DNA of 11,192 nt from positions 1-11,192 of the IMG/VR virus record IMGVR_UViG_3300045988_001928, one strand, 5' to 3'. The notes beneath the pieces are model-generated. The model ran no database searches. It worked only from the letters and a program-made list of their open reading frames with translations, and was not told the origin of the DNA. Source of the stretch: a virus. Made by a program: the position numbers and the translations under genes. Shown piece after piece: positions 1-11,192 of the stretch (within the stretch, counting starts at the first letter, position 1; the number at the start of each line of letters is the position of its first letter).

Positions 1-57
1 AAGGTACGCTACTGACCCATATTTAACATTTCCCAACGCACATTTAACGGTTGCTAA

Positions 58-86
58 CAGACTTTGGCACGCTTTTTGCTATGGGT
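58..86. repeat. ITR-internal 29-nt direct repeat, copy 1 (cagactttggcacgctttttgctatgggt)
   Basis: Matches 117..145 at 26 of 29 positions with a 59-nt period. Mirrored in the right ITR at 11107..11135. Preceded by tttaacatttc at 22..32. Confidence 0.85.
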
Positions 87-116
87 CGCCCTTACCGTTT
101 TTTTAACATTTCGCAC

Positions 117-145
117 CAGACTTTGGCACGGTTTTTGTTATGCGT
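117..145. repeat. ITR-internal 29-nt direct repeat, copy 2 (cagactttggcacggtttttgttatgcgt)
   Basis: 26 of 29 identical to 58..86. Mirrored at 11048..11076. Preceded by a second tttaacatttc at 102..112. Confidence 0.85.
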
Positions 146-152
146 GTGCGTC

Positions 153-169
153 CGTGAAATTGTTTCACG
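153..169. repeat. Perfect 7-bp-stem palindrome cgtgaaa-ttg-tttcacg inside a left-end-specific 25-nt segment (147..171)
   Basis: The reverse complement of cgtgaaa is tttcacg. The segment has no counterpart next to the right ITR. Confidence 0.8.
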
Positions 170-225
170 TGGAACACAACACCAAGAGTTAAGAAAAGTT
201 AAAACGAAATAATTTGTGCACTTAT

Positions 226-256
226 GCTTGTATGTTAGAAAAATGTTGTATCTTTG
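226..256 (+). promoter_or_regulatory. Candidate left-end early promoter, Bacteroidota type: gCTTG-N18-TATCTTTG
   Basis: TATCTTTG at 249..256 fits the Bacteroides -7 consensus TAnnTTTG. An upstream CTTG lies at 227..230 with an 18-nt spacer. The same architecture occurs on the - strand at 10959..10989. Confidence 0.55.
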
Positions 257-283
257 TAGTGTTCAATTAAACGATTTGAAAAT

Positions 284-496
284 ATGAAAGAGTTACTACA
301 ACATTTCAGAGAGCAACCGAAAGAAGTAATTAAAGAAGTTGCAATGTGTTTAGCGATTTTCACCGTATGTGGGGCAATCTTGCAGGGTTGCAACGTACAA
401 CGTGAAAGCGCAAGCAGCGGCAAAGCAGTGATAATAACAACCGATACAACGTATATCTACCACGGCGGCGCGGTGAAGTTTCCAAAAACAAAATAA
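284..496 (+). CDS. Small hypothetical protein (70 aa), membrane-anchored or secreted; possible lipoprotein
   Basis: First ORF after the candidate promoter. It has a hydrophobic stretch AMCLAIFTVCGAILQG followed by Cys (a lipobox-like LQGC) and a polar C-terminal half. The CAATTAAA leader motif lies 12 nt upstream of the ATG. Confidence 0.5.
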   Translation: MKELLQHFREQPKEVIKEVAMCLAIFTVCGAILQGCNVQRESASSGKAVIITTDTTYIYHGGAVKFPKTK

Positions 497-500
497 CAAT

Positions 501-530
501 AAGTTTAACAATTAAAAGTTTACTACAATG
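501..530 (+). promoter_or_regulatory. 30-nt conserved leader aagtttaacaattaaaagTttactacaATG, copy 1
   Basis: 29 of 30 identical to 752..781. It ends in the start codon of the downstream ORF. Confidence 0.6.
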
Positions 531-740
531 AACGAAAAAAGAAACGCATTTGATGAGTTTAGTTTTGACGCTATGTCGGCGTTGGGTGGCCTTATGGCGT
601 GTAATGAAGTTTGCCGCAATCAACGTGCGGTTATGAAAATAAACCGCTTTCGTGCGTGGCTTATGGACTTGAAGCCGCAAGCCAACCCCGAACTGAACTT
701 GCCTTTTGACGGCGAGCTGCAAGGACAGACAGCCGAATAA
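528..740 (+). CDS. Hypothetical early protein (70 aa)
   Basis: ORF preceded by the conserved 30-nt leader, co-oriented and tightly spaced with its neighbours. No motif recognised. Confidence 0.5.
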   Translation: MNEKRNAFDEFSFDAMSALGGLMACNEVCRNQRAVMKINRFRAWLMDLKPQANPELNLPFDGELQGQTAE

Positions 741-751
741 CAAATAACAAG

Positions 752-781
752 AAGTTTAACAATTAAAAGATTACTACAATG
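752..781 (+). promoter_or_regulatory. 30-nt conserved leader aagtttaacaattaaaagAttactacaATG, copy 2
   Basis: 29 of 30 identical to 501..530. It ends in the start codon of ORF 779..1135. Confidence 0.6.
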
Positions 782-1135
782 AAAAGTTTTGCAAGTAAAT
801 TTAACAAGACCACGTTTGGCATTGACACAACCGATTTTCAGTACACCAGGTTAGCCGATATTTTCAACTCTGAAAATGAGGGCGGCAAAGATGTGATACA
901 CAAAATTAACGGGCTTTATGTCCACAAATCACAATTAGGCGACAGCCCAGTAATTATTGATGAGGAAAACAAACGGTTGGTGAACCTACCAAGCCACACC
1001 GCCGAAACGGTACGTGAAATTCTTACCGATGAGGAGGCGGTACAAACTATCAAAGACGGCAAAGTTGGGTACACGATTTACGAGTATGAGAGCCACGGCA
1101 AGAAGTGTTACTCTATTTCGTTTGTGGACTTGTAA
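779..1135 (+). CDS. Hypothetical early protein (118 aa). It occupies the slot where phi29 encodes its SSB and DNA-binding proteins, upstream of the TP and polymerase genes
   Basis: Clean ORF with the conserved leader. The functional suggestion rests on position only. Confidence 0.6.
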   Translation: MKSFASKFNKTTFGIDTTDFQYTRLADIFNSENEGGKDVIHKINGLYVHKSQLGDSPVIIDEENKRLVNLPSHTAETVREILTDEEAVQTIKDGKVGYTIYEYESHGKKCYSISFVDL

Positions 1136-1154
1136 GAGTTGGGAAAGTTATGTT

Positions 1155-1162
1155 TAACTTTG
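1155..1162 (+). promoter_or_regulatory. Candidate -7 box TAACTTTG for the replication module
   Basis: Fits TAnnTTTG and is followed by TAG, as in the boxes at 249 and 5272. A CTTG lies 22 nt upstream. It overlaps the foot of the 1163..1189 hairpin, so the assignment is uncertain. Confidence 0.35.
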
Positions 1163-1189
1163 TAGGGGTTGCAATGTTTGTAACCCCTA
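1163..1189 (+). terminator. 12-bp hairpin (taggggttgcaa-tgt-ttgtaaccccta) followed by a T-rich tail; possible terminator or attenuator after the early genes
   Basis: Arms pair by hand with one G-T wobble. Downstream sequence is tttaatataat. Confidence 0.4.
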
Positions 1190-1206
1190 TTTAATATAAT
1201 ACCGTT

Positions 1207-1860
1207 ATGGCAAAGTTAGGTTTCAAGATTAAATTTACAAAGTCTGTATTTGGAGCAACCCAACGGGCGAAAATCAAAAAAGAGATATTGCAAGCCGTGG
1301 AAAGCAGTCCCAAATATAGAAAAGAGATTGCTAGGGTTTTCCAAATGGCGAACCGCCGTATTCAGAACATAGAGCAAAGCGGACAACTTTCGCCAGCCGC
1401 GCAAGCGTTAAACAAAGGCGATGTAAAAGGGTTTACCAAGTTTTCAATGAAAGGCGATTGGAACGCCCTAAAAATTGAGTACGGCAAGGCGATTTCGTTT
1501 TTACGCCAGCCGACCAGTACGGCGCAAGGTGCAAGGCAGTACGGGCAACACCTGCAACGTATGTACGACTTAACGCCCGATGAGTATAACCTTATGGCAA
1601 GGAACTTGCAGGGCAAGTTAAACAGCGTTTCGGATAGTGATTTCGTGGAACGGTATTTGATGAGGTACAAAGATTTCACGGGCGAAATGGAGCAAAGCGC
1701 AAGCGATATAAGCACCCAAATAGAAAGTGAAGCGCAAAGCATATCACGGGCAATTGATGCAGAGATAGAAAGGCAGGCAAATGAAGTTGCGGACGCAATG
1801 GAGGATATGCAAAACGATATAGAACGCATATTGAGCAACTTTAATAAGTTTGGCTTATGA
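1207..1860 (+). CDS. Candidate terminal (priming) protein, 217 aa
   Basis: Lies immediately upstream of the protein-primed polymerase, and its stop overlaps the polymerase start (ATGA at 1857..1860), as in the phi29 gene 3 / gene 2 arrangement. The N-terminus is basic and the C-terminal third is acidic and helical. No confident sequence match recalled. Confidence 0.45.
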   Translation: MAKLGFKIKFTKSVFGATQRAKIKKEILQAVESSPKYRKEIARVFQMANRRIQNIEQSGQLSPAAQALNKGDVKGFTKFSMKGDWNALKIEYGKAISFLRQPTSTAQGARQYGQHLQRMYDLTPDEYNLMARNLQGKLNSVSDSDFVERYLMRYKDFTGEMEQSASDISTQIESEAQSISRAIDAEIERQANEVADAMEDMQNDIERILSNFNKFGL

Positions 1861-4067
1861 AAAAAATACCTTTTGAGTTACAAGAAAGAATAAACAGCCC
1901 GACCGAAATAACCGAAATACTGAAAGCCGCCGTAAATGAAAAAAACATTATCGGAAACAGCAAGGGCGAAAGGTTTTACAACATACCGTGTGCCTTTGAT
2001 ATTGAAACAACAAGTTTTTACCGTGATACGGACGGACGGGCGTACACATACGAGCAAGTGCAGCGTATGCAGGACAGCAACGGGCGCAAGGCGAAATTAG
2101 AGAAAGCCGCTATAATGTACGTTTGGCAGTTTGGCATAAACGGATATACGATAATGGGGCGCACGTGGGGCGAGTTTGTTACGATGATGCAGACCGTAAG
2201 CGAGGTTTTGCAGTTATCCGACAAATTGCGCCTTATTGTGTATGTGCATAACCTATCTTATGAATTTCAATTTTTGCGTAAATGGTTTGATTGGCAACGG
2301 GTTTTCTCAATAGACCTACGAAAGCCGATTTACGCTATTACAACGGGAAACATTGAGTTTAGATGTAGTTATTTGCTTTCGGGTTATTCTTTGGCAAAGT
2401 TGGGCGAGCAACTTATGAAATACAAGTGTGCAAAAGCCGTTGGCGATTTGGACTATCATTTAATAAGGCACAGCGAAACGCCGCTAACCGATACTGAAAT
2501 AGGGTATTGCATAAACGATATAAAAGTAGTTATGTGCTATATTCAGGAACGTATAGAGGAAAGCAAAGGAATAACCCACATACCGATAACAAAGACGGGG
2601 TTTGTGCGCAAGTATTGCCGTGCGCACTGTTTGCGTGAAAAGAGCGATTCAGGTAAGACCGTACCGAATTGGGATTATGCGAACCTGATGCAGGAACTAC
2701 AAGTAACGGGTATGAATGAATTTAATATGCTGCAACGTGCATTTGCAGGCGGTTTTACACACGCAAACGCCGAATATACGGACGAGATAATGTGTGACGT
2801 TGATAGTTACGATTTCACCAGCAGTTACCCATATGTAATGATTGCGGAAAAATACCCGATGTCGCAAGGCGTTGCAATTACGGTTAAGAGTACGGCGCAA
2901 TTTGATTTTCTAATATCAAAATATTGTTGCGTGTTCGATATTGAGTTTACTAACATATTTGCCAGCGAAACGCAAGACAACCCGATAAGCGCAAGCAAAT
3001 GTTTTGTTAAGGAAAACCCGTGCGAGAATAACGGGCGTATTGCGGCGGCGAGTAAGATAGCGTTAACGATTACAGATGTGGACTTTCATATTATCAAAAA
3101 CTTTTATACGTGGGAACGTATGCGAGTGGGTGAAATGTACTGTTACAAAAGAGAGTATTTGCCGACCCCGTTTGTTAAGTCTATCCTACATTTGTACGAA
3201 AGCAAGACAAAATTAAAAGGCGTTGAGGGCAAAGAAGCGGAGTACCTAAACAGCAAGGAAATGTTAAACAGTTGTTACGGTATGAGTGTAACAAACCCGT
3301 TGCGTGATGAGTTTACATATAACGGCGAATGGGATATTAACGCAATGTCGCCCGAACAAAAGCAGGAACTACTATATAAGTACAACACCAGCAAAAACCG
3401 TTTCTTGTTTTACCCGTGGGGTATCTTTGTAACCGCATACGCACGGCGCAACCTTTTCACGGGCATACATGAAGCGAAAGACGATTACATATACAGCGAC
3501 ACCGACAGCATTAAGATAATGAACGGCAAGGCGCATGAAGCGTATTTCAAGGCGTATAATATGCAGGTGCAAATGAAATTGCGTGCCGCCTGCAAATATC
3601 ACGGTTTGCCGTTTTCGCTTTGCGAGCCGCAAACGATAAAAGGCATAACAAAGACTTTGGGCGTGTGGGATTTTGAAGGTACATATACGAGGTTTAAGAC
3701 TTTGGGCGCAAAACGCTACATGGTGCAAGAACCGAACGCACTCAAAGCAGGCGGACGGGCATACGATTTCAGTTTAACCGTTTCGGGCGTAAACAAGAAA
3801 GCCGCAATACCGTATCTTATTGAAAAGTACGGCGAAAACGGGATATTCGATGCGTTTACCAATTATTTGGATATACCGCCGCAAGCAACGGGCAAAAACA
3901 TACACACTTACATAGACTACGAGATACAAGGCGAAATAACCGACTACAAAGGCAGCACGGCGCACTACAACGAACGCACTGGCGTACATTTAGAGCCGAC
4001 AGGGTACAGCCTATCTTTGTCGGTTATGTATATAAATTATTTGCGAGGTATCAAATTTAAGGACTAA
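1857..4067 (+). CDS. Family B DNA polymerase, protein-primed type (phi29 gp2-like), 736 aa
   Basis: Exo I is FDIETTS (D48, E50). Exo II is YVHNLSYEF (N132, E136). Exo III is YCINDIKV (Y217, D221). YxGG is FAGGF. Motif A is DFTSSYP (D319). Motif B is KEMLNSCYG (K467). Motif C is YSDTDS (nt 3492..3509). KxY is KRY (K619). Confidence 0.95.
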   Translation: MKKIPFELQERINSPTEITEILKAAVNEKNIIGNSKGERFYNIPCAFDIETTSFYRDTDGRAYTYEQVQRMQDSNGRKAKLEKAAIMYVWQFGINGYTIMGRTWGEFVTMMQTVSEVLQLSDKLRLIVYVHNLSYEFQFLRKWFDWQRVFSIDLRKPIYAITTGNIEFRCSYLLSGYSLAKLGEQLMKYKCAKAVGDLDYHLIRHSETPLTDTEIGYCINDIKVVMCYIQERIEESKGITHIPITKTGFVRKYCRAHCLREKSDSGKTVPNWDYANLMQELQVTGMNEFNMLQRAFAGGFTHANAEYTDEIMCDVDSYDFTSSYPYVMIAEKYPMSQGVAITVKSTAQFDFLISKYCCVFDIEFTNIFASETQDNPISASKCFVKENPCENNGRIAAASKIALTITDVDFHIIKNFYTWERMRVGEMYCYKREYLPTPFVKSILHLYESKTKLKGVEGKEAEYLNSKEMLNSCYGMSVTNPLRDEFTYNGEWDINAMSPEQKQELLYKYNTSKNRFLFYPWGIFVTAYARRNLFTGIHEAKDDYIYSDTDSIKIMNGKAHEAYFKAYNMQVQMKLRAACKYHGLPFSLCEPQTIKGITKTLGVWDFEGTYTRFKTLGAKRYMVQEPNALKAGGRAYDFSLTVSGVNKKAAIPYLIEKYGENGIFDAFTNYLDIPPQATGKNIHTYIDYEIQGEITDYKGSTAHYNERTGVHLEPTGYSLSLSVMYINYLRGIKFKD

Positions 4068-4079
4068 AATAACAAGATT

Positions 4080-5210
4080 ATGACTATAAGAAAGACAAAG
4101 GCAGAAAAGCCGAAATTTTACGACTTGAAAGCGATTTTAAGTAAGAACGCCGATTATAATGTTATCTTTGGCGAACGGTCAAACGGCAAGACTTATGCAG
4201 CCTTAAAATATGGTTTGGAAAACTATATCAAGACGGGAAAGCAAATGGCATATATACGCCGTTGGCGTGAGGATTTACGGGGCAAACGTGCCGAAAGTCT
4301 GTTTGCAAATCACACCGCAAACGGGCTTATTGAGGAACTGACAGAGGGCAAATTTAATGAAGTGTTCTATATGTCTAACAAGTGGTTTTTGTCGTACTAC
4401 GATGCAGAGAAAAACAAGCGGACACCCGACACAACCCCGTTTTGTTACGGGTTTTGCCTTTCAGAGCAGGAACACGAAAAAAGCAGCAGTTACCCGAATG
4501 TTACAACGATTGTGTTTGATGAGTTTCTGACACGGCGGTATTATTTGCCCGATGAGTTTATGTTGTTTATGAACCTTTTAAGCACTATAATACGCCAGCG
4601 CAACGATGTTAAGGTCTTCATGTTGGGGAACACCGTAAACAAGTTTTGCCCGTATTTTACCGAAATGGGGTTGAAGCAAGTGCCGTTTATGGAGCAGGGC
4701 ACGATTGATATATACCGCTTTGGCGAACACGGCGCAATAGTGGCGGTCGAGTATTGCAGCAGCACCATACAACACAAAGCCAGTAACAAGTATTTTTGTT
4801 TCGATAATCAAAACTTGCAGATGATTACTGGCGGTAAATGGGAACTTGCCGTTTATCCGCATTTGCCGTGCAAGTACAAGCCGCAAGACGTGTTGTTTGT
4901 GTATTATATCAAGTTTAACGATGTTGTTTTGCAGGGTAACATTATCCAGGTAGGCAACGAATGTTTTACGTACATACACGCCAAAACAACCCCGATAAAA
5001 GATGAGGAAAACAGCCTTATTTATTCGCTTGAAATGAACGGCAAACCGAACTACAAACGCAAGTTGTTAAGTACAGCGAGTTATGTAGAACAGCAAGTCG
5101 CACGGTTTTTCGCAATAGACAAAGTTTTCTACCAAGACAACGAAATAGGCGAAATTGTGCGCAATTATTTAATTACGAGCGCAAAGACAAACATAGTTTC
5201 GTTGAAATGA
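4080..5210 (+). CDS. DNA encapsidation (packaging) ATPase, phi29 gp16-like, 376 aa
   Basis: Walker A is GERSNGKT (nt 4170..4193). The segment EKSSSYPNVTTIVFDEF parallels recalled phi29 gp16 SEKSNAYPNVSTIVFDEF (Walker B). YIRRW parallels YVRRY. Confidence 0.9.
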   Translation: MTIRKTKAEKPKFYDLKAILSKNADYNVIFGERSNGKTYAALKYGLENYIKTGKQMAYIRRWREDLRGKRAESLFANHTANGLIEELTEGKFNEVFYMSNKWFLSYYDAEKNKRTPDTTPFCYGFCLSEQEHEKSSSYPNVTTIVFDEFLTRRYYLPDEFMLFMNLLSTIIRQRNDVKVFMLGNTVNKFCPYFTEMGLKQVPFMEQGTIDIYRFGEHGAIVAVEYCSSTIQHKASNKYFCFDNQNLQMITGGKWELAVYPHLPCKYKPQDVLFVYYIKFNDVVLQGNIIQVGNECFTYIHAKTTPIKDEENSLIYSLEMNGKPNYKRKLLSTASYVEQQVARFFAIDKVFYQDNEIGEIVRNYLITSAKTNIVSLK

Positions 5211-5220
5211 AAATTACGGG

Positions 5221-5257
5221 CGGTTTGGTGCTGATTTAGTGCCAAACCGACCGTTTT
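5221..5257 (+). terminator. Hairpin cggtttggtgc-tgattta-gtgccaaaccg followed by gaccgtttt; probable terminator after the replication/packaging block
   Basis: 11-bp stem with two G-U pairs when read as RNA. The T-run is separated from the stem by 4 nt. Confidence 0.5.
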
Positions 5258-5271
5258 ACAAATAAAATGTT

Positions 5272-5279
5272 TATCTTTG
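5272..5279 (+). promoter_or_regulatory. Candidate -7 box TATCTTTG for the structural module
   Basis: Identical octamer to the left-end box at 249..256 and followed by a similar TA(A)GT. It sits between a hairpin and the first structural-module ORF. Confidence 0.5.
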
Positions 5280-5304
5280 TAAGTAGTAACTAAATAATAA
5301 CGAT

Positions 5305-5511
5305 ATGGACGCAAATACTATTATTCAGATTGTTTCAAGTTTGGGTTTTCCGATTGTGATGTGTGGGGCGTTGTTTTGGTACATTGTGAAACAAAGGCAG
5401 GCGCACCAAGAAGAGACGGAACACCTAAAAGACACGATTGCGGAAAATACGAAAGTGTTAGCCGAACTTACAACCCTAATTAAAGTTTTGACAGATGAAA
5501 AGGAAAGATAA
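5305..5511 (+). CDS. Small single-pass membrane protein (68 aa), YvrJ-like; holin-like candidate
   Basis: N-terminal hydrophobic segment IIQIVSSLGFPIVMCGALFWYIV followed by a charged helical tail. The GFPIV core recalls the YvrJ small-protein family. It overlaps the connector gene start by 17 nt. Confidence 0.5.
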   Translation: MDANTIIQIVSSLGFPIVMCGALFWYIVKQRQAHQEETEHLKDTIAENTKVLAELTTLIKVLTDEKER

Positions 5512-6583
5512 CATTTACAAGTTGTACCAAGCGCAAATAAGGGATAAGGACACCGCCGTAACCGAATTTATTGCGAACACTTTGGCGAAAACTCAAAGTA
5601 TGTTTGAGTACGAGGGTTTGCCCGAAAGCATACCGCAAAAAGAATTGGAGCGGCTTTTGCAGACAACGGGCAACGCTTTTGTTACCAGCGTGGACGGCGT
5701 TTTGTATGCGCTATCGGGCGGCAAGGGCGGCGAACCCGATGTTTACGGACGGGCAACGCTTTACACCGTGGCGAACCCTGCATTAAAGTTAAACAAAACC
5801 TACGATATACAGAAAGACGGGGTTTTGATTGAGAATGACAGCAACGGCGAAAGCCTTTTGCCGCTGATTGGGCGTTATGCGGTTTTGCATACTGACGGTC
5901 TTATTTCGTTGAACACGGCGAGCATTTTAACCCGTATTACAATGCTGATAAGTGCCAGCGATGATAAGACGAAACAAAGTGCCGATGAGTTTTTGTGCAA
6001 GATACAAGACGGCGAGTTTTCTATTATCGGGGAAAACGCTTTTTTCAAGGGCGTAAATATGCAGACCGCACCGACCACAAACAGCGTGTACATTACGCAA
6101 CTTATTGAACTGATACAGTACTACAAGGCGAGTATGTACAACGAATTAGGGCTAAATGCAAACTACAACATGAAACGGGAACGCCTAAATTTGGGCGAGG
6201 TTAGCATGAATGTAGATGTACTTTTGCCGTATGTGGATAATATGCTAAAAGAAAGACAAAATGCAGTTGAAAAGATTAACGCAATGTTTGACACCGAAAT
6301 TTCGGTTAAACTTGCTTCAAGTTGGGGTTTGGAACGTGATAATTACAACGCTTTGGCGGCTGATTTGGAAACGGCAAAGGAAACCCCCGACCCGACAGAG
6401 GAAACAACTGGAACGGACGGAAACGAACCCGACCCGACAGAGGAAACAACCGAAACGGACGGAAACGACACCGAAACGACCGAAACAGAGGAAACAGAGG
6501 AAACGAAAGAAACGGAAACGGAAACGGACGGTAACGATACCGAAACAGAGGAAACAGACGAAAACAAAGAGGATAAGCAATGA
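5495..6583 (+). CDS. Head-tail connector (portal) protein, phi29 gp10-like, with a ~70-aa acidic repetitive C-terminal extension
   Basis: FEYEGLPESIP parallels recalled gp10 FEWENLPPTIN. DVYGRATLY parallels DVYNQATVF. NANYNMKRERLNLGEV parallels NANLEKKERMVTDEV. RQNAVEKINAMF parallels REEACEKINELY. Confidence 0.9.
   Translation: MKRKDNIYKLYQAQIRDKDTAVTEFIANTLAKTQSMFEYEGLPESIPQKELERLLQTTGNAFVTSVDGVLYALSGGKGGEPDVYGRATLYTVANPALKLNKTYDIQKDGVLIENDSNGESLLPLIGRYAVLHTDGLISLNTASILTRITMLISASDDKTKQSADEFLCKIQDGEFSIIGENAFFKGVNMQTAPTTNSVYITQLIELIQYYKASMYNELGLNANYNMKRERLNLGEVSMNVDVLLPYVDNMLKERQNAVEKINAMFDTEISVKLASSWGLERDNYNALAADLETAKETPDPTEETTGTDGNEPDPTEETTETDGNDTETTETEETEETKETETETDGNDTETEETDENKEDKQ
6386..6469 (+). 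repeat. Two tandem 42-nt in-frame repeats (39 of 42 identical) encoding PDPTEETTGTDGNE and PDPTEETTETDGND
   Basis: Copies at 6386..6427 and 6428..6469. They are followed by degenerate GAAAC(A/G)-type repeats up to the stop codon. Confidence 0.9.
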
Positions 6584-7152
6584 AATACAGCGAACTATTT
6601 ACAACGGGTAACGGGATATTCGCAACCGTTTTCAAGACCGAATATCCGACAGAGTACGCCGCAATTTTCGGCGATACCGCACCCGAAAAGTTAGACGCTT
6701 ACGCCTTACTGATGTACGGCGGCAAGACAGTTGTAAGCAGCATAACCAGCGACAACGCAAAAGATGTTGTTTCGGCGGTTATTGCGGTAAACGTGCAAGG
6801 TTGGGAACGGGAAGCGGCGGCGATGTTAGCCGATTACGATGTACTGACACCCGTAACGGGCAACGTGGAACGTACCGAAACAGTTACTTTGCAGGAAAGC
6901 ACCGACAACACCGAAACGGGCGCAAACAAGGCTTTCAACGACACCGATTTTTCAGACAGCGACCGAAAGACCGCCAACGATGAGAGAAACCGCACAGAAA
7001 GCCGCAAAACGACCGAAACAAGCAAAGGAACGGGCGCAAGCAAATCAATTTCGGGCGAAATTGCAAAAGAATTGCAGTTAAGGCGTGATAATTGGCGAAA
7101 AAATATTATCTTCGCACTTGTAAGAGAGATTACAACGAGTATTTACGAATAA
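6580..7152 (+). CDS. Hypothetical assembly/structural protein (190 aa); scaffold or head-tail adaptor candidate by position
   Basis: ATGA overlap with the connector gene stop at 6580..6583. It lies between the connector and major capsid genes. The centre is polar and disorder-like and the C-terminus is basic and helical. Confidence 0.6.
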   Translation: MKYSELFTTGNGIFATVFKTEYPTEYAAIFGDTAPEKLDAYALLMYGGKTVVSSITSDNAKDVVSAVIAVNVQGWEREAAAMLADYDVLTPVTGNVERTETVTLQESTDNTETGANKAFNDTDFSDSDRKTANDERNRTESRKTTETSKGTGASKSISGEIAKELQLRRDNWRKNIIFALVREITTSIYE

Positions 7153-7173
7153 CTAATTTTAATTTTTAGCAAT

Positions 7174-8364
7174 ATGGAAATAAAACAGATTTACACGCTT
7201 ATTAACAGCGTATCGGGTGAGGTGTTGGGGCGTACTGATATTGTCGCCGAAGACCTTACTGGCATTGTGGATTTAGGCACGGAAGTGTTTAACCAAAATG
7301 CGGTTGACAATTACGTAAAATCACTTGTAAACCATATCGGCAAGGTGATTTTCGTAAACCGACCTTATGTGGGTAAAGTGCCGAGCGTTTTAATGGATGC
7401 TTGGGAGTTTGGAAGCGTATTGGAAAAAATAAGTGCCGATGTTCCCGAAGCCGAGGAAAACGACACGTGGAACTTGAAGGACGGGCATACCTATTCGCAA
7501 GATGTGTTCCACAAACCGACCGTTTCGGCAAAGTTTTTCAACTCAAAGGTTACGTTTGAAGTGCCCGTATCAATCACCGAAAGACAGGTTAAGGAAAGTT
7601 TCAGCAACGCCGCACAGTTGAACGGCTTTATTTCGATGATTTATGCAGCGGTTGAAAAGAGCATGACAATTAAGGCAGACGCTTTAATCATGCGCACAAT
7701 TAACAACATGATTGCGGAAACCGTTTTGGCTGATGCGGTTGCATTTGGCGGTACGGTAGGCGACCTTACAAGTGCCACCCTTTCAAGTGCCAGCACTGCA
7801 AGATGCGTAAACCTTTTGAAGTTGTACAACGACAAGACAGGGGCAGAAACACCGCTTACGGCTGCAAAGGCGATAACCGACCCCGATTTTATCCGCTTTG
7901 CGTCTTACGTAATGGGAACTTACGCCGACCGTCTCCAAAGCATTTCCACCGTGTTCAATGTTGGTGGCAAGGAAAGGTTTACCCCGAAAGATATGTTACA
8001 CGTTGTACTTTTGTCTGACTTTGCAAAGTCGGCGCAAACCTATCTTTATTCTGACACCTACAACCGTGGCGATGTACTGTTACCGCAAGCCGAAACAGTA
8101 CCGTTTTGGCAAGGCAGCGGCAAGAACTACGCCTTTGAGAACACTGGGCATATCACGGTTAAGGAAAGCGGCGGCAAAAGCGTTGAAATTTCGGGCGTGT
8201 TGGGCGTAATGTTCGACCGTGATGCGTTGGGCGTTTGCAATCTTGACAGACGGGTAACAACGAACTACAACGCAAAGGCAGAGTTTTTCAACAACTATTA
8301 CAAGTTTGACGCAGGGTATTTCAACGATACAAACGAAAACTTTGTAGTATTCTTTATTGAGTAA
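7174..8364 (+). CDS. Major capsid protein, 396 aa
   Basis: The position follows the connector and scaffold-slot genes. DNYVKSLVNHIGKVIFVN parallels recalled phi29 gp8 NDFITSLVDRIGLVVIRQ. The gene is followed by the strongest terminator in the window. Confidence 0.8.
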   Translation: MEIKQIYTLINSVSGEVLGRTDIVAEDLTGIVDLGTEVFNQNAVDNYVKSLVNHIGKVIFVNRPYVGKVPSVLMDAWEFGSVLEKISADVPEAEENDTWNLKDGHTYSQDVFHKPTVSAKFFNSKVTFEVPVSITERQVKESFSNAAQLNGFISMIYAAVEKSMTIKADALIMRTINNMIAETVLADAVAFGGTVGDLTSATLSSASTARCVNLLKLYNDKTGAETPLTAAKAITDPDFIRFASYVMGTYADRLQSISTVFNVGGKERFTPKDMLHVVLLSDFAKSAQTYLYSDTYNRGDVLLPQAETVPFWQGSGKNYAFENTGHITVKESGGKSVEISGVLGVMFDRDALGVCNLDRRVTTNYNAKAEFFNNYYKFDAGYFNDTNENFVVFFIE

Positions 8365-8392
8365 CTCAATAAGTATTAGATTGTTTAACTTT

Positions 8393-8440
8393 GGGCGGTG
8401 TGGGTGCATGTGAAAGCGCACCGCACCGCCTTTTTTCTTT
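8393..8440 (+). terminator. Rho-independent terminator after the capsid gene
   Basis: GC-rich stem ggcggtgtgg(g)tgc paired with gcaccgcaccgcc, about 13 bp with one bulge and one G-U pair, followed by TTTTTTCTTT. Confidence 0.75.
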
Positions 8441-8446
8441 GCAGAT

Positions 8447-8890
8447 ATGACAACGATAAACTTTTATTCATACAACGGACACCCTAACACGGTAAACAAG
8501 CAATTAGGAGACTTTACGGCGATTGAGGGCGATTTGCGGCAAACTTTCGATGTGTTGCGCCCGACCGTAACACTACGAAAGCATCCCCGACCGACTTTCA
8601 ATTATTGTTACATACCCGATTTAGGGCGTTATTATTTCGTGGATAGGGTAAGTTTTGAGGGAAACAACGCCTACGAACTTACGTTGCATGTTGACGTGCT
8701 TAAAACCTACGAAAGCGAAATTTTGGCGGCAACTGGGCGTGTATCTGAAAGCGACAACCCCGACCCGTATATTTCAAACCGTGAAACGGTTTACAAGCGC
8801 ACCCCGAATTTTGAGAAAGTACCTTTTGCAAATACGGGCTTACTGAATGAAACTGGTGGAATTATTATGGTAACATTAAAAGGAAATTAA
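8447..8890 (+). CDS. Tail protein (147 aa) resembling the N-terminal domain of the phi29 gp9 tail knob
   Basis: NYCYIPDLGRYYFVDRVSFEGNNAYELTLHVDVLKTYESEI parallels recalled gp9 [48 protein letters not shown]. Confidence 0.55.
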   Translation: MTTINFYSYNGHPNTVNKQLGDFTAIEGDLRQTFDVLRPTVTLRKHPRPTFNYCYIPDLGRYYFVDRVSFEGNNAYELTLHVDVLKTYESEILAATGRVSESDNPDPYISNRETVYKRTPNFEKVPFANTGLLNETGGIIMVTLKGN

Positions 8891-8893
8891 AAT

Positions 8894-10504
8894 ATGGCAA
8901 CATGGACTAACAACGTACCTAACACGTTTTATCCTGACGGTGGCAACACGTTTACAAATAGTGTTGGCACTTTCGACCTTGAATGTGAAAAAGGTTATAT
9001 TTTTGATGGGGATATAACCGTAAAATATAACGGTAATACAACTATCATATTAGAGCAAAACGAAACGAAAACGAAGGCTACAAAAGCGGTATCAAATTAT
9101 ATTGGAACATATGGCGTTACTTTTAAAGGCAAGACCAAACAGGTGTCATCGCCTAAACCGCCGTTTACAGGGCAAAACAACGTACCTAACACAGCATACA
9201 CGGATAACAGCGATTACGATGCGGAAACGCTGAATTTCGTGCTTACGTGCGATAATGGGTATATATTTGACGGGCAACCGACATTCAAATATAGGAACGG
9301 TAATACAGGCTTATTTGAAACCGTTACGGGAGTGTTAAGTGAAAACGACACCGTAGCCACGTTCACGGGAACAGGGTATTACGATAGTAGCGAGGTTGTA
9401 ATAAATGGAAACACCAAGAAAAAAGAAGAGCCAAAGGTATATTTTAAAGTTACCACAGGTTTAACAAATTGTAAGGGTGTGAATATTCCCGAACAATACG
9501 AGGCGGACACGGAAGTGACAATAACGCTAAAAGCCAACACAAATGCTGAATTTGTAAGCGATGAACCCCGCCGCCCAGTTGTGCAACTTTATGACAAATA
9601 CGGTGATTTTACAGCGTTTCCGATGAATATAAGCGAGGATAAGAAAACCGCAAGTTTAACCATATTGTTAGACACTGAAAAATACGACCCAAGCAAAGGT
9701 ATTTACATAGGAGCGGACGCCGAAGTTACCAGCGTAATAGGTGAACATTACGGTGCAATTAATGTGTATTTGGTAACGCTTGATGATTTGGAAGCCTTTT
9801 CTAAAAAGCGGTTTTTCCGTGAAACGGGTAAAGACCCGAGTACGGGCGTTGAAATATACGAAAACATTGATTTAGGCGAATATGTTAACCGAATAAAGCG
9901 TATTTATACGAATATCAATTCAAAAGGGCAGGACGTTATACGATGTGGCAATTACAACACGGAAGTAAACGCAAATATACCTGAAACGGATAAAATAACG
10001 CTTGATTTCGGCACGGCGGTTGTACCAGCGCACAATGAGGACAACACCGACTACGAAAGCGAAATACAAATCTTTTTGCCGTTTGCGGGCTTTGTAAACC
10101 TCAATACCGATTATGCAGGTAAAACGATAGCTTTGCAGTACGTTATAAACGTGGTAACGGGCAACGGGGTTGCGCTTTTGTCCTGCAACGGCGTTGTATT
10201 TCAAGTTGAGGAAACAGAGCCAAGCAGCGAAATAATATACCTTTCACCAAGCACCCAAGTTAAAACCGTTGGCGGCGATGATTGGAACGAAAGGTTATAT
10301 TACGGCTTAGAACCTTACATTTACTGCAAGTGGTACGAGAGCGCAAGCAACGGGCGAAACACCGACCGACAAGCAGGCATTTTAGGCGATTTCAGAGGGT
10401 TTAATATGTTCGATGATGTTACACCCATACACACCGCCGAAATGCTGACAGAGGAACAAGAAATGATATACACGGCTTTGTCTGACGGCGTTTATATTGA
10501 GTAA
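8894..10504 (+). CDS. Large tail protein (536 aa): two tandem ~89-aa N-terminal modules plus a C-terminal region with tail-knob-like segments; probable receptor-binding / distal tail protein
   Basis: It is the largest ORF in the structural module. NNVPNT...C(E/D)(K/N)GYIFDG...(V/F)KY is repeated at aa 6-45 and 95-133. IFLPFAGFVNLNTDYAGKTIALQYVINV loosely parallels gp9 [25 protein letters not shown]. Confidence 0.6.
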   Translation: MATWTNNVPNTFYPDGGNTFTNSVGTFDLECEKGYIFDGDITVKYNGNTTIILEQNETKTKATKAVSNYIGTYGVTFKGKTKQVSSPKPPFTGQNNVPNTAYTDNSDYDAETLNFVLTCDNGYIFDGQPTFKYRNGNTGLFETVTGVLSENDTVATFTGTGYYDSSEVVINGNTKKKEEPKVYFKVTTGLTNCKGVNIPEQYEADTEVTITLKANTNAEFVSDEPRRPVVQLYDKYGDFTAFPMNISEDKKTASLTILLDTEKYDPSKGIYIGADAEVTSVIGEHYGAINVYLVTLDDLEAFSKKRFFRETGKDPSTGVEIYENIDLGEYVNRIKRIYTNINSKGQDVIRCGNYNTEVNANIPETDKITLDFGTAVVPAHNEDNTDYESEIQIFLPFAGFVNLNTDYAGKTIALQYVINVVTGNGVALLSCNGVVFQVEETEPSSEIIYLSPSTQVKTVGGDDWNERLYYGLEPYIYCKWYESASNGRNTDRQAGILGDFRGFNMFDDVTPIHTAEMLTEEQEMIYTALSDGVYIE

Positions 10505-10524
10505 CTGCAAGGCAGGATAAAAAG

Positions 10525-10560
10525 AAAGGCGGCAACTTGATTGTTACCGCCTTTTCTTTT
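10525..10560. terminator. Bidirectional terminator between convergent genes
   Basis: Hairpin aaaggcggcaac-ttgatt-gttaccgccttt with one mismatch, flanked by an A-run upstream and TTTTCTTTT downstream. It therefore reads as stem plus U-run on both strands. Confidence 0.7.
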
Positions 10561-10572
10561 GCTTTCTGATTG

Positions 10573-10926
10573 TTATTTGTCATGCAATGTTTGAATGCCC
10601 GTTAAACCGATGTACAATTTTGTGGGGAAACATTCGCAAAAGGTTTCGAACCGCTCGACCAACTTTTCAGTCGCTATAAAGTCGTATGCTTGATTTTTGC
10701 AGGCAACTTCCATTGCGAACTTGTTGCGTATATCACGGTTAAACAAGATTAGATTGTCCAGCGTATCGGCAAGCGTTTGCATACTTTCGGCAACGTTTTC
10801 AAGGTTTGTGCGAATTTCGGGCGCATTTACCGCCAAAAACTCAATGTGTTTCTTACTTTGCAATACCAAGTTTTGCATTGCGTTTAACACTTTCTGATTT
10901 TCAAAAATTAAATCTGTCGTTTTCAT
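10573..10926 (-). CDS. Hypothetical, apparently helical protein (117 aa); the only leftward gene, at the right genome end
   Basis: Clean ORF with its own promoter-like element. It has the same CAATTAAA leader, 12 nt from the ATG, as the left-end early genes. Confidence 0.6.
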   Translation of the reverse strand: MKTTDLIFENQKVLNAMQNLVLQSKKHIEFLAVNAPEIRTNLENVAESMQTLADTLDNLILFNRDIRNKFAMEVACKNQAYDFIATEKLVERFETFCECFPTKLYIGLTGIQTLHDK

Positions 10927-10958
10927 TTTTATAAAGTATTTAATTGTTTAACACTATG

Positions 10959-10989
10959 CAAATGTACGCATTTTATTTTACCTGCAAGC
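10959..10989 (-). promoter_or_regulatory. Candidate right-end early promoter (reads on the - strand gCTTG-N18-TACATTTG)
   Basis: The - strand octamer TACATTTG spans 10966 down to 10959. CTTG spans 10988 down to 10985, giving an 18-nt spacer. It is followed by (ca)TAGTGTT...CAATTAAA, as at the left end. Confidence 0.55.
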
Positions 10990-11046
10990 GGTTTGCGTGT
11001 TATTTTATGTTAAATTATTCTTTTAACTTTGTTTAACAATGTGTTC

Positions 11047-11192
11047 CACGCATAACAAAAACCGTGCCAAAGTCTGGTGCGAAATGTTAAAAAAACGGTA
11101 AGGGCGACCCATAGCAAAAAGCGTGCCAAAGTCTGTTAGCAACCGTTAAATGTGCGTTGGGAAATGTTAAATATGGGTCAGTAGCGTACCTT
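11047..11192. repeat. Right inverted terminal repeat (ITR-R), 146 bp
   Basis: Exact reverse complement of 1..146. Confidence 0.97.

Follow-up and report, generated by a model that had tools for sequence, protein, structure and literature searches.

The Astrithrvirus-like phages astrithr, Phanie and a Shigella phage (11.2-11.9 kb) are gene-for-gene syntenic with the window, by which we mean the whole 11,192-nt stretch of DNA analysed here. In these phages as in the window, the gene order runs from small genes through a candidate terminal protein (TP) of ~200 aa, a family B DNA polymerase (PolB), a gp16 ATPase and a ~65-aa membrane protein to the connector, and on from a ~185-aa protein through the capsid protein, a ~147-aa knob part and a large knob part to leftward small genes. 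Synteny and homology cover ORF4-8 and ORF10-12, with identities of 57-60% for the capsid protein, 51-54% for the ATPase and 40-46% for PolB, and the window has no match to these genomes at the nucleotide level. It is a divergent new member of this already known kind, the astrithr group having genomes of 11.2-11.7 kb. An endolysin gene lies 3′ of the knob gene in the astrithr group, whereas the window has none; conversely, three left-end genes (ORF1-3) of the window are lacking in that group. There is one leftward gene rather than three or four, the terminal sequence is AAAGGTACGC in the window's clade as opposed to GGCTAGGG or CACACCGG, and TAnnTTTG promoters without Shine-Dalgarno (SD) sites contrast with SD-like sites at 54-77% of astrithr-group genes. 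For example, Acinetobacter phage Aci01-2-Phanie has the same synteny, a perfect 171-nt inverted terminal repeat (ITR) and a split tail knob, with a capsid protein 59% and a PolB 46% identical to those of the window, but differs in its amidase gene and in a knob protein that is much larger and bears the annotation alginate lyase. Phanie is reported to be experimentally helper-dependent and to use a myophage tail, a strategy that its relatives may share (PMC11476376).

The Bacillus phage phi29 (Salasmaviridae) has in common with the window a protein-primed PolB, a gp16 ATPase, a gp10 connector and a phi29-type capsid, as well as the knob N-terminal domain, a 5′-AAA terminus and the adjacency of the genes for single-stranded-DNA-binding protein (SSB), TP and polymerase. 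However, phi29 is 19.3 kb long with a 6-nt ITR and divergent early genes, whereas the window is 11.2 kb long with a 146-nt ITR. Phi29 also has a pRNA, which its gp16 motor requires, appendages (gp12), a tail lysin (gp13), a holin and an endolysin; a search of the window found no pRNA, appendages or lysins. A further phi29-like gut metagenomic phage with a split knob, Bacteriophage sp. isolate 2692_55609 (12.1 kb, 42.5% GC), was compared by description only; it falls in cluster 30, has a predicted Bacteroidales host and is placed with the Amedibacillus phages, not in the astrithr cluster (PMC11476376). The window's capsid protein is ~60% identical to those of the astrithr group and only ~30% to those of the Amedibacillus phages.

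Genome ends and completeness

The first-pass annotation had described a perfect 146-nt ITR at both extremities, and indeed the arms at 1-146 and 11047-11192 (no strand assigned) are exact reverse complements, 100% complementary; the probability of a chance match of this length exactly at the two ends is negligible. The terminal ~40 nt (AAGGTACGCTACTGACCC...TTTAAC...) are the presumed replication origin. Among relatives, AAAGGTACGC is the commonest terminus (25 of 65 contig ends), and at 7 further contig ends an Illumina adapter is fused straight onto it; several contigs, and also a sister lineage, show such exact junctions. The same end sequence recurs in dozens of related contigs, some with the sequencing adapter abutting, and an identical terminus was obtained from different assemblers and different samples, including the same starting nucleotide in an independent megahit contig (L005). 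Since independent assemblies stop at one nucleotide and adapter is fused to AAAGGTACGC, these are real DNA ends. The window itself begins with AAGGTACGC where the ends of its relatives read AAAGGTACGC, and it is therefore most likely short by one A per end. No contig longer than ~12.8 kb carries these genes, either among the best 120 of 3,325 homologues or in the other contig tables.

The earlier claim of a full-length linear genome thus stands as regards the ends and the matched PolB, ATPase, connector and capsid genes, and needs amending for the A that is probably missing at each end. Similarly, 11.2 kb does lie at the low end of the tailed-phage size range, as had been proposed, but it is no record: related phages in GenBank measure 11,151, 11,162 and 10,390 bp, and 11.6 kb is the figure usually given for the smallest tailed phage to have been isolated. 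Taken together, the data support the view that this 11.2-kb linear genome, which belongs to a tiny tailed phage of phi29 type, is essentially complete. We put at roughly 0.85 the probability that the window is, minus one terminal A per end, the complete linear dsDNA genome of an uncultured podophage of miniature Astrithrvirus-like phi29 format.

Gene content and proposed mode of life

As first annotated, the window holds 13 non-nested ORFs, 12 on the plus strand and only ORF13 leftward, with the ATPase gene (ORF6) after the polymerase gene (ORF5) and the connector gene (ORF8) ahead of the capsid gene (ORF10); these four marker assignments all passed profile searches. To this order we add a 68-aa ORF between ATPase and connector and a 190-aa ORF between connector and capsid gene. 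The layout differs from that of phi29, but the implied novelty falls away, because it is the standard Astrithrvirus-like layout, reviewed in PMC11476376. Each of the 13 genes is kept in 64-71 of the 71 near-full-length relatives, none of which has additional genes. The clade is uncultured and very abundant, with 342 IMG/VR relatives and 10,329 sequences in the window's PolB 90% cluster; the window is one among thousands of near-identical sequences from gut metagenomes.

At the left end, ORF1 (284-496, plus strand; 70 aa) is variable and clade-specific, resembles a small exported protein or lipoprotein (charged N-terminus, hydrophobic segment, LQGC) and has no family match in profile searches; ORF2 (528-740, plus; 70 aa) follows. 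A structure match newly identifies ORF3 (779-1135, plus; 118 aa) as an SSB of protein-primed-phage type: a Foldseek search of BFVD with its AF2 model (pLDDT 88.5) ranks the SSB of Staphylococcus phage JBug18 first (E 7.6e-10, TM 0.72), and matches to PRD1 SSB P12 and PrgE in the PDB are weak. ORF4 (1207-1860, plus; 217 aa), the stop of which overlaps the PolB start, is a terminal-protein candidate by position and homology only, as the positional counterpart of phi29 gene 3 and a homologue of astrithr gp02 and Phanie gp2. Profile comparison found no similarity of ORF4 to the TP of phi29 or GA-1, and its AF2 model is unusable (pLDDT 46.7) and lends the assignment no support. ORF5 (1857-4067, plus; 736 aa) is a protein-primed PolB (PF03175, 6e-10; phrog_1907, 3e-71) with phi29 polymerase 1XHX as its sole PDB match. 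It has every exonuclease and polymerase motif, plus TPR1- and TPR2-sized insertions, and its ExoII has Glu in place of Asp, a feature common to astrithr-group PolBs.

The packaging ATPase of gp16 type, ORF6 (4080-5210, plus; 376 aa), matches PF05894 Podovirus_Gp16 (3e-24), and its translation contains Walker A GERSNGKT and Walker B VFDEF. ORF8 (5495-6583, plus; 362 aa) is a gp10-type connector (PF05352, 4e-14; phrog_2038, 1e-38) whose C-terminal ~80 aa form an acidic Thr/Glu/Asp tandem-repeat tail, encoded at 6386-6570 (repeats D1-D4). ORF9 (6580-7152, plus; 190 aa) is probably a short lower-collar protein by analogy with astrithr gp07, which it matches in position, an assignment that follows PMC11476376; hhalign against phi29 gp11 gave a probability of only 6%. 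ORF10 (7174-8364, plus; 396 aa) is a phi29-type major capsid protein (PF25622 Phi29_MCP, 3e-56). ORF11 (8447-8890, plus; 147 aa), a homologue of astrithr gp09, also has homology to the N-terminal part of gp9, the tail knob of phi29 (hhalign probability 60%, E 8.7e-5), and ORF12 (8894-10504, plus; 536 aa), a homologue of gp10 of both astrithr and Phanie, is a distal tail-knob/host-recognition protein with a hypervariable N-terminal half, a conserved C-terminal half and no detectable match to gp9. The sole leftward gene, ORF13 (10573-10926, minus; 117 aa), is variable.

In the mode of life that we propose, replication would start from both ends with a covalently attached terminal protein, possibly ORF4, as primer. 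The ORF5 polymerase would carry out DNA synthesis, the reiterated 5′-AAA terminus would allow phi29-style sliding-back, and the ORF3 SSB would coat the displaced strand. The ORF6 ATPase would package DNA through the ORF8 connector into the ORF10 capsid, and ORF9, together with a split tail knob formed by ORF11 and ORF12, would make up a short tail. The genes would be expressed from Bacteroidota-type promoters lacking SD sites.

Expression signals, lysis and alternative readings

The Bacteroidota-type -7 promoter motif TAnnTTTG occurs 34 times in the window against 14.4 expected, more than twofold over shuffles, and stands at fixed offsets upstream of six genes (ORF1, 4, 7, 10, 11 and 13) in ~95% of genomes. 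For example, TATCTTTG is found upstream of ORF1 (249-256, plus; kept in 68 of 70 relatives, offset 35) and again upstream of ORF7 (5272-5279, plus; 72 of 72), TAACTTTG at 1155-1162 is kept in 58 of 60, and TACATTTG (10959-10966, minus) accompanies ORF13. SD-like sites are almost absent from the clade, compared with 54-77% of genes in proteobacterial relatives and ~60% in phi29 and GA-1, and sigma70-type promoter matches in the window are at chance level only. Reading of the sequence also revealed a hairpin after ORF3 (1164-1188, plus), which directly follows and abuts the TAACTTTG motif, and an intrinsic terminator after the capsid gene (8394-8436, plus), a GC-rich hairpin followed by TTTTTT that a simple scan missed. 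A bidirectional intrinsic terminator occupies the ORF12/ORF13 interval (10525-10554, no strand assigned).

It is very improbable that the ITR and the apparent completeness are an assembly artefact, such as a fold-back at a repeat, or that the window represents only part of a larger element or prophage. Such a reading could draw on two contigs: L004 (12,320 bp) encodes the window's exact proteins but has positions 1-432 replaced by 1,543 nt of unrelated sequence, and the relative L033 has ORF13 at each end and an inverted repeat longer than 600 nt. However, the size of L004 is explained by its foreign left arm and adapter sequence, since the arm truncates ORF1, as expected for a chimera, and the last stretch of the contig is Illumina adapter, 14 nt away from the right end of the window; the adapter junctions and the recurrence of one terminus across assemblers and samples likewise argue against an artefact, and integrase or flanking host genes are absent from every contig examined. 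The complete genome that we favour might nevertheless belong to a phage that, like Phanie, depends on a helper and takes its tail, and perhaps its lysis functions too, from an unrelated phage infecting the same cell; its particle could then neither enter nor lyse a cell unaided. We observed, for the first time, that a gene for an endolysin or other peptidoglycan hydrolase is absent from the window and 71 clade genomes, whereas the sister lineage L089/L090 has a Peptidase_M15_3 gene, L114 an ELLD+CW_7 lysin, and the astrithr group a lysin gene too. Helper dependence would explain a clade with neither such an enzyme nor a tail fibre, and it fits the split tail knob common to the window and Phanie and the suggestion that Phanie's relatives may also rely on a myophage tail (PMC11476376). 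Phanie, however, keeps its amidase gene, so the helper-dependent phenotype as known does not include lysin loss; Salmonella phage Astrid has been described as a non-satellite phage; and the exported ORF1 could form an unrecognised lysis system with ORF7 (5305-5511, plus; 68 aa), a holin-like homologue of astrithr gp05 in which a single transmembrane segment is combined with a coiled-coil tail (phrog_4898 holin, 6e-9; Pfam BhlA match below its threshold). We consider helper dependence unlikely.

Bacteroidota-type promoters combined with the lack of SD sites suggest a gut bacterium of the phylum Bacteroidota as the most likely host, and we hold this to be probable. That both signals are instead features of the phage lineage, or point to another SD-poor group such as Melainabacteria/Gastranaerophilales, seems somewhat unlikely. 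The labels of the 32 metagenomic bins that hold relatives are inconsistent and span many taxa, L089 and L090 of the sister lineage are both binned in Melainabacteria/Gastranaerophilales MAGs, the -33 TTTG element is weak and poorly conserved, and two TAnnTTTG motifs lie immediately next to hairpins and are perhaps not promoters. Yet mis-binning is common for small contigs that comprise a whole phage, in keeping with the inconsistent labels, and Prevotella, Phocaeicola and Muribaculaceae account for three of the 32 bins. In addition to the enrichment and fixed offsets of the motif, its intergenic density is 5-6 per kb, as compared to at most 1.7 per kb in relatives with proteobacterial or Bacillus hosts.

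Elements inside and beside the terminal repeats

Each ITR contains two inward-facing sigma54-like units, a motif array that is a new observation. Unit 1, TTTGGCACGCTTTTTGCTATG (TGGCAC-N5-TTGC), lies at 63-83 (plus) with a mirror copy at 11110-11130 (minus), and unit 2, TTTGGCACGGTTTTTGTTATG, at 122-142 (plus) with a mirror copy at 11051-11071 (minus; repeats D10/D11). These four matches in the window compare with 0.13 expected. Indeed, near the ends of 72 contigs 265 copies face inward and 0 outward, with the units at fixed distances of 66/124/172 from the terminus. A subterminal near-palindrome, TTGTTTCACGTGGAACACA, is present at 160-178 and again at 11040-11058 (repeat I18; no strand assigned) and may serve as an operator for a DNA-binding protein that acts as a dimer; the same element is found near the ends of L090, L111 and L114.

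Physical ends of a small linear genome

The window is bounded by a perfect inverted terminal repeat (ITR), as the first-pass annotation had described, with arms at 1-146 and 11047-11192 that span 146 nt and are 100% complementary. That these arms are real ends of a linear genome is borne out by other contigs. For example, a contig from a different sample and a different assembler (L005) shares its first nucleotide with the window and does not differ from it across the 10,496 nt retrieved, and in relatives adapter junctions fall at a fixed base. At seven contig ends the Illumina adapter, ...CTCTTCCGATCT, is joined directly to AAAGGTACGC, and in the sister lineage L090 it is joined to AAAGGTACAC. 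Ligation of adapter at one constant genomic position is the mark of a physical DNA end, and therefore the true terminus is 5'-AAAGGTACGC. The motif GGTACGC[TA]A[CT]TGACCC was located within 60 nt of the end at 65 contig ends on 37 contigs, most commonly preceded by AAA (25 of the 65, counted apart from the seven fused to adapter), and the consensus terminus of the relatives is AAAGG, a reiterated terminal base as expected of protein-primed linear genomes. The window begins AAGGTACGC; judged against these termini it is probably one A short at each end, which would place the full genome at 11,194 bp. The earlier claim of a full-length genome holds for the physical ends and for completeness, with the reservation of that single base on either side.

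The sizes of related contigs agree with a complete genome of this length. The exact window capsid protein was found on eight contigs, as was the exact protein of ORF1, and IMG/VR contains 342 relatives, of which we fetched 80 with capsid proteins 89-95% identical. Most of these are contigs of 10.5-12 kb, each with its own perfect ITR of 71-349 nt. A search with the ORF4 protein returned 3,325 homologues, and the longest contig among the best 120 of the 3,325 is about 11.9 kb; in the remaining contig tables no contig carrying window genes exceeds about 12.8 kb. A 12,320-bp contig (L004), whose phage proteins are identical to those of the window, would seem to extend the genome, since it joins window positions 433-11178 to 1,543 nt of unrelated sequence (L004 1-1543) in place of window 1-432. 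This foreign arm encodes a GLUG-motif protein and splits ORF1 in two, and at the far end of the contig (12290-12320) Illumina adapter is fused directly after window position 11178; L004 is probably a chimeric assembly, with a rare recombinant as the possible alternative. In a second long contig, that of a relative (L033, 12,685 bp), the inverted repeat exceeds 600 nt and places a copy of ORF13 and of the end of ORF12 at both extremities; either its ITR has expanded or the assembly folded back on itself.

A divergent member of the Astrithrvirus-like phages

Thirteen ORFs lie between the ITR arms, twelve on the plus strand and one (ORF13, 10573-10926) on the minus strand, as had been described. 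The four marker genes named in the first-pass annotation were all matched in profile searches (Pfam and PHROGs): a protein-primed family B polymerase, PolB (ORF5, 1857-4067, plus strand; PF03175, 6e-10; phrog_1907, 3e-71), a gp16-type packaging ATPase (ORF6; PF05894, 3e-24, and a matching PHROG), a gp10-type connector (ORF8; PF05352, 4e-14; phrog_2038, 1e-38) and a phi29-type major capsid protein (ORF10; PF25622, 3e-56, and a matching PHROG). The sole solved structure to match the polymerase is phi29 DNA polymerase (1XHX, E 1.3e-6). When aligned with the polymerases of phi29, GA-1 and three astrithr-like phages, the window PolB retains all three Exo motifs (I-III), KxY and motifs A, B and C, and its motif spacings (A to B, 148 aa; B to C, 79 aa; 134 and 71 aa in phi29) leave room for the TPR1 and TPR2 insertions. 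At 736 aa it is about 160 aa longer than the phi29 enzyme; the window clade has a 23-aa insertion directly after ExoI, and ExoII reads NLSYEF, with Glu replacing the catalytic Asp66 of phi29, a substitution common to the whole astrithr-like group. Separately, the connector ends in an acidic tail of about 80 aa, rich in Thr, Glu and Asp, that is encoded by tandem 42-nt-type repeats (6386-6570); judging by the unequal lengths of antisense ORFs in this region, relatives seem to differ in the number of repeats.

Additional functions could be proposed for several of the smaller genes. The AF2 model of ORF3 (pLDDT 88.5) has as its best structural neighbour the single-stranded DNA-binding protein (SSB) of Staphylococcus phage JBug18 (E 7.6e-10, TM 0.72), followed by proteins of other small podophages and of Clostridium phage susfortuna, with weak PDB matches to the PRD1 SSB P12 and to PrgE. 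The ORF3 profile did not match the SSBs of phi29 or GA-1, and we assign ORF3 as an SSB from its predicted structure only. The resulting order of ORF3 (SSB), ORF4 and ORF5 (polymerase) parallels phi29 genes 5, 3 and 2. ORF11 aligns with the N-terminus of phi29 gp9 (hhalign probability 60%, E 8.7e-5) and ORF12 (8894-10504) is homologous to gp10 of astrithr and gp10 of Phanie; comparisons of ORF12 directly with gp9, and of its C-terminal half with gp9 and the PDB, gave nothing significant, nor did ORF9 match phi29 gp11 significantly. ORF7 is holin-like (phrog_4898, 6e-9), and profile searches assigned no family to ORF2 or ORF13. Similarly, no tRNA was found in the window and no Rfam family was matched, pRNA included. 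Packaging by a pRNA is known in the Bacillus phi29 group, in contrast to the window, where none was found and where the non-coding sequence at the termini shows no unusual degree of structure (z +1.08 and +0.25); a divergent pRNA is possible. For astrithr-like phages, a published review mentions no pRNA (PMC11476376).

Although a megablast search of 50,697 phage records with the full-length window gave no nucleotide match, translated searches identified a set of small relatives: Salmonella phages astrithr, Astrid and assan, Pectobacterium DU_PP_III, Acinetobacter Phanie, Enterobacter Entb_47, Shigella vB_SHGBLB0004 and Vibrio K58 g2. Their genomes are 10.4-11.9 kb, their capsid proteins 55-60% and their polymerases 40-46% identical to those of the window, and their annotated maps are collinear with it. 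Indeed, tblastn paired ORF4-8 and ORF10-12 with counterparts in these phages. The window therefore has the common gene order, homologous core proteins and 11-12 kb genome of the Astrithrvirus-like group, together with its tail knob split into a small N-terminal and a large C-terminal part, as indicated by the matches of ORF11 to gp9 and of ORF12 to gp10 of astrithr and Phanie. Perfect ITRs are likewise present in Phanie (171 nt) and in the Shigella phage (60 nt). Genera are delimited at roughly 70% nucleotide similarity, and with no megablast match and protein identities of 40-60% the window would appear to fall outside the genus Astrithrvirus itself.

The first-pass annotation was thus correct, both as observation and as interpretation, and two of its emphases need adjustment. 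The layout does differ from that of phi29, as proposed, but it is not novel, being the Astrithrvirus-like layout of the collinear maps, which a 2024 review has already discussed (as MCP cluster 23), along with the tail knob split into two proteins and a short lower collar (PMC11476376). The genome is small, but GenBank records in the same group include sizes of 11,151, 11,162 and 10,390 bp. The window phage is a divergent uncultured phage of a known kind rather than a new kind. All 13 genes are kept in 64-71 of 71 near-full-length relatives, in which no additional credible genes were found, and the most variable are ORF12, ORF1 and ORF13 (median identity 60%, 63% and 72%, respectively). The 90%-identity cluster of its PolB has 10,329 member sequences, and GenBank already lists some clade proteins under 'MAG: hypothetical protein [Bacteriophage sp.]'. 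The window is a near-minimal, 13-gene tailed-phage genome, and its clade is among the extremely common ones in sequence data from the gut.

Expression signals, ITR motif arrays and the predicted host

Of greatest interest in this clade are its probable Bacteroidota host, a lost lysin and the motif arrays of its ITRs. The motif TAnnTTTG, which Bayley and colleagues reportedly linked in 2000 to Bacteroides promoters as their -7 consensus, occurs 34 times in the window against 14.4 expected, a count reached in none of 200 shuffles, whereas sigma70-type promoters are at chance (22 found, 21.3 expected). Six genes have the motif upstream at a constant distance across the clade: ORF1 (68 of 70 genomes), ORF4 (58 of 60), ORF7 (72 of 72), the capsid gene (about 66 nt upstream, 69 of 72), ORF11 (68 of 72) and ORF13 (46 of 48). 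The window's own copy before the capsid gene (about 7108-7115, inside the end of ORF9) reads TATCTTCG, one base off the consensus. The -33 promoter element is weak in the clade.

Shine-Dalgarno (SD)-like sequences are nearly absent. SD-like sites precede 0-15% of genes in the window clade and in the sister lineages L089, L090, L092 and L111, and the same genomes carry 2.9-6.2 intergenic TAnnTTTG motifs per kb (5-6 except in L092, a partial contig). In contrast, astrithr, Phanie and the Shigella phage have SD-like sites at 54-77% of genes and at most 1.7 motifs per kb, and phi29 and GA-1 have SD-like sites at about 60% of genes. Another sister lineage, L116, is also without SD-like sites, yet has just 0.9 motifs per kb. 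Together the motif and the absence of SD sites point to a host in the Bacteroidota, a reading from sequence signals to which we give a probability of about 0.65. Published assignments place gut phi29-like phages in Firmicutes and Actinobacteria (PMC10159846), and the one predicted Bacteroidales phage belongs to a different cluster (PMC11476376). Metagenomic bins were considered as a further source: a scan of species-representative genomes revealed 32 relatives with capsid proteins 52-92% identical, but all 32 are small whole-phage contigs, readily mis-binned, in gut MAG bins of assorted and unrelated taxa, and we dropped the bin labels as host evidence. If the Bacteroidota assignment is true, Astrithrvirus-like protein-primed mini-phages extend from Proteobacteria into Bacteroidota.

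Two recurrent elements accompany these signals. A 51-nt direct repeat of 88% identity (482-532 and 733-783; ...AAGTTTAACAATTAAAAGnTTACTACAATGAA) comprises the leader and first codons of ORF2 and of ORF3, and may be a common SD-less translation-initiation region; TTTAAC recurs in both leaders and in the ITR. The sequence GTTTAACTTTG, which contains the -7 motif, adjoins a strong hairpin twice, after ORF3 (1155-1188) and after the capsid gene (8386-8436), suggesting a terminator coupled to re-initiation or a common protein-binding site.

Each ITR consists of a conserved terminus of about 40 nt followed by repeat units of about 58 nt. The core of the unit, T(T/G)TGGCACG(G/C)TTTTTG(C/T)TATG, matches the sigma54 -24/-12 consensus TGGCAC-N5-TTGC, and the window carries two units per end, at 63-83 and 122-142 on the plus strand and at 11051-11071 and 11110-11130 on the minus strand (four matches against 0.13 expected). 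Near the ends of 72 contigs we counted 265 inward-facing copies and no outward-facing ones. Unit starts are fixed at 66, 124 and 172 from the terminus, and the number of copies per end (2, 3 or 4) goes with ITR length (71-349 nt). The motif is also found at the ends of the sister lineages L090, L111 and L116. Just inside the ITRs, between the repeat units and the promoters of ORF1 and ORF13, both ends carry a near-palindrome, TGTTTCACGTGGAACA / TTGTTTCACGTGGAACACA (160-178 and 11040-11058). Related copies are found close to the termini of L090, L111 and L114, a lineage that does use SD sites; the element may be an operator, bound by a dimeric protein that the phage encodes. Taken together, the repeated elements of the two ends may act as promoters, as enhancers of the origins or as operators.

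The missing lysin and a terminal-protein candidate

Neither the window nor any of 71 clade genomes was found to encode an endolysin or tail lysin, and they offer no room for such a gene, a robust difference from relatives. In the astrithr group, astrithr and Phanie included, the knob genes are followed by a gene for an endolysin or amidase, the sister lineages L089 (10655-11077, minus strand) and L090 (10308-10733, minus strand) have a Peptidase_M15_3 gene in the leftward operon, and L114 (10439-11050, plus strand) has an ELLD+CW_7 lysin. ORF1 (284-496) is missing from L089 and L090, which have the M15 endolysin instead. Its N-terminus is charged and conserved, and with its hydrophobic segment and LQGC it is a small protein of exported or lipoprotein-like type. 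Two C-terminal allele types exist; the window has one of them, plus a 6-aa deletion in the hydrophobic segment relative to most relatives.

The absence of a lysin may reflect dependence on a helper, as in Phanie, which needs a myophage as its helper (PMC11476376), or a means of lysis as yet unrecognised. A combined reading would make the clade a Bacteroidota-infecting, Astrithrvirus-like offshoot that has discarded every peptidoglycan hydrolase, and that either depends on a helper, through Phanie-style tail hijacking and borrowed lysis, or lyses its host by way of ORF1 and ORF7, with the TGGCAC-N5-TTGC units of the ITR acting as host sigma54 promoters or host-factor sites for early events from both ends. 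Taken as a whole, we consider this combination unlikely. With no lysin gene in any of its genomes, the clade is a good test case, which could reveal the lower size limit of a self-sufficient tailed phage or else helper dependence among such phages.

ORF4 (1207-1860) overlaps the start of PolB and has homologues in astrithr (gp02) and Phanie (gp2), and by this position and homology it is a candidate terminal protein. Its profiles matched neither the PDB nor the terminal proteins of phi29 and GA-1, and its AF2 model from a 40-sequence alignment is all-helical with a pLDDT of 46.7. The matches listed for a direct search with the protein are 96-98% identical, and a further search used a profile built on more distant sequences. 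E40, A48-N49, R51, E56, P63-A64 and T103-S104-T105 are among the invariant residues, and S62 and T103/S104/T105 are conserved candidates for the residue that would be linked to dAMP. There are two allele classes, of 217 aa and of 210-215 aa. Among 63 genomes the divergence of ORF4 covaries with that of ORF12, 7 kb away (Mantel r 0.60, p 0.005), more strongly than does that of ORF11, the neighbour of ORF12 (r 0.46), or of the genes flanking ORF4 (PolB, r 0.23; ORF3, r 0.09). ORF1, considered as a receptor-masking exclusion lipoprotein co-evolving with the ORF12 knob, showed no such covariation (Mantel r 0.07, p 0.2), and that idea was rejected. The covariation of ORF4 with ORF12 could be that of two co-inherited allele classes. 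In the phi29 virion, cryo-EM locates the DNA-linked terminal protein in the knob lumen, and if ORF4 is the terminal protein its covariation with ORF12 would fit that arrangement.
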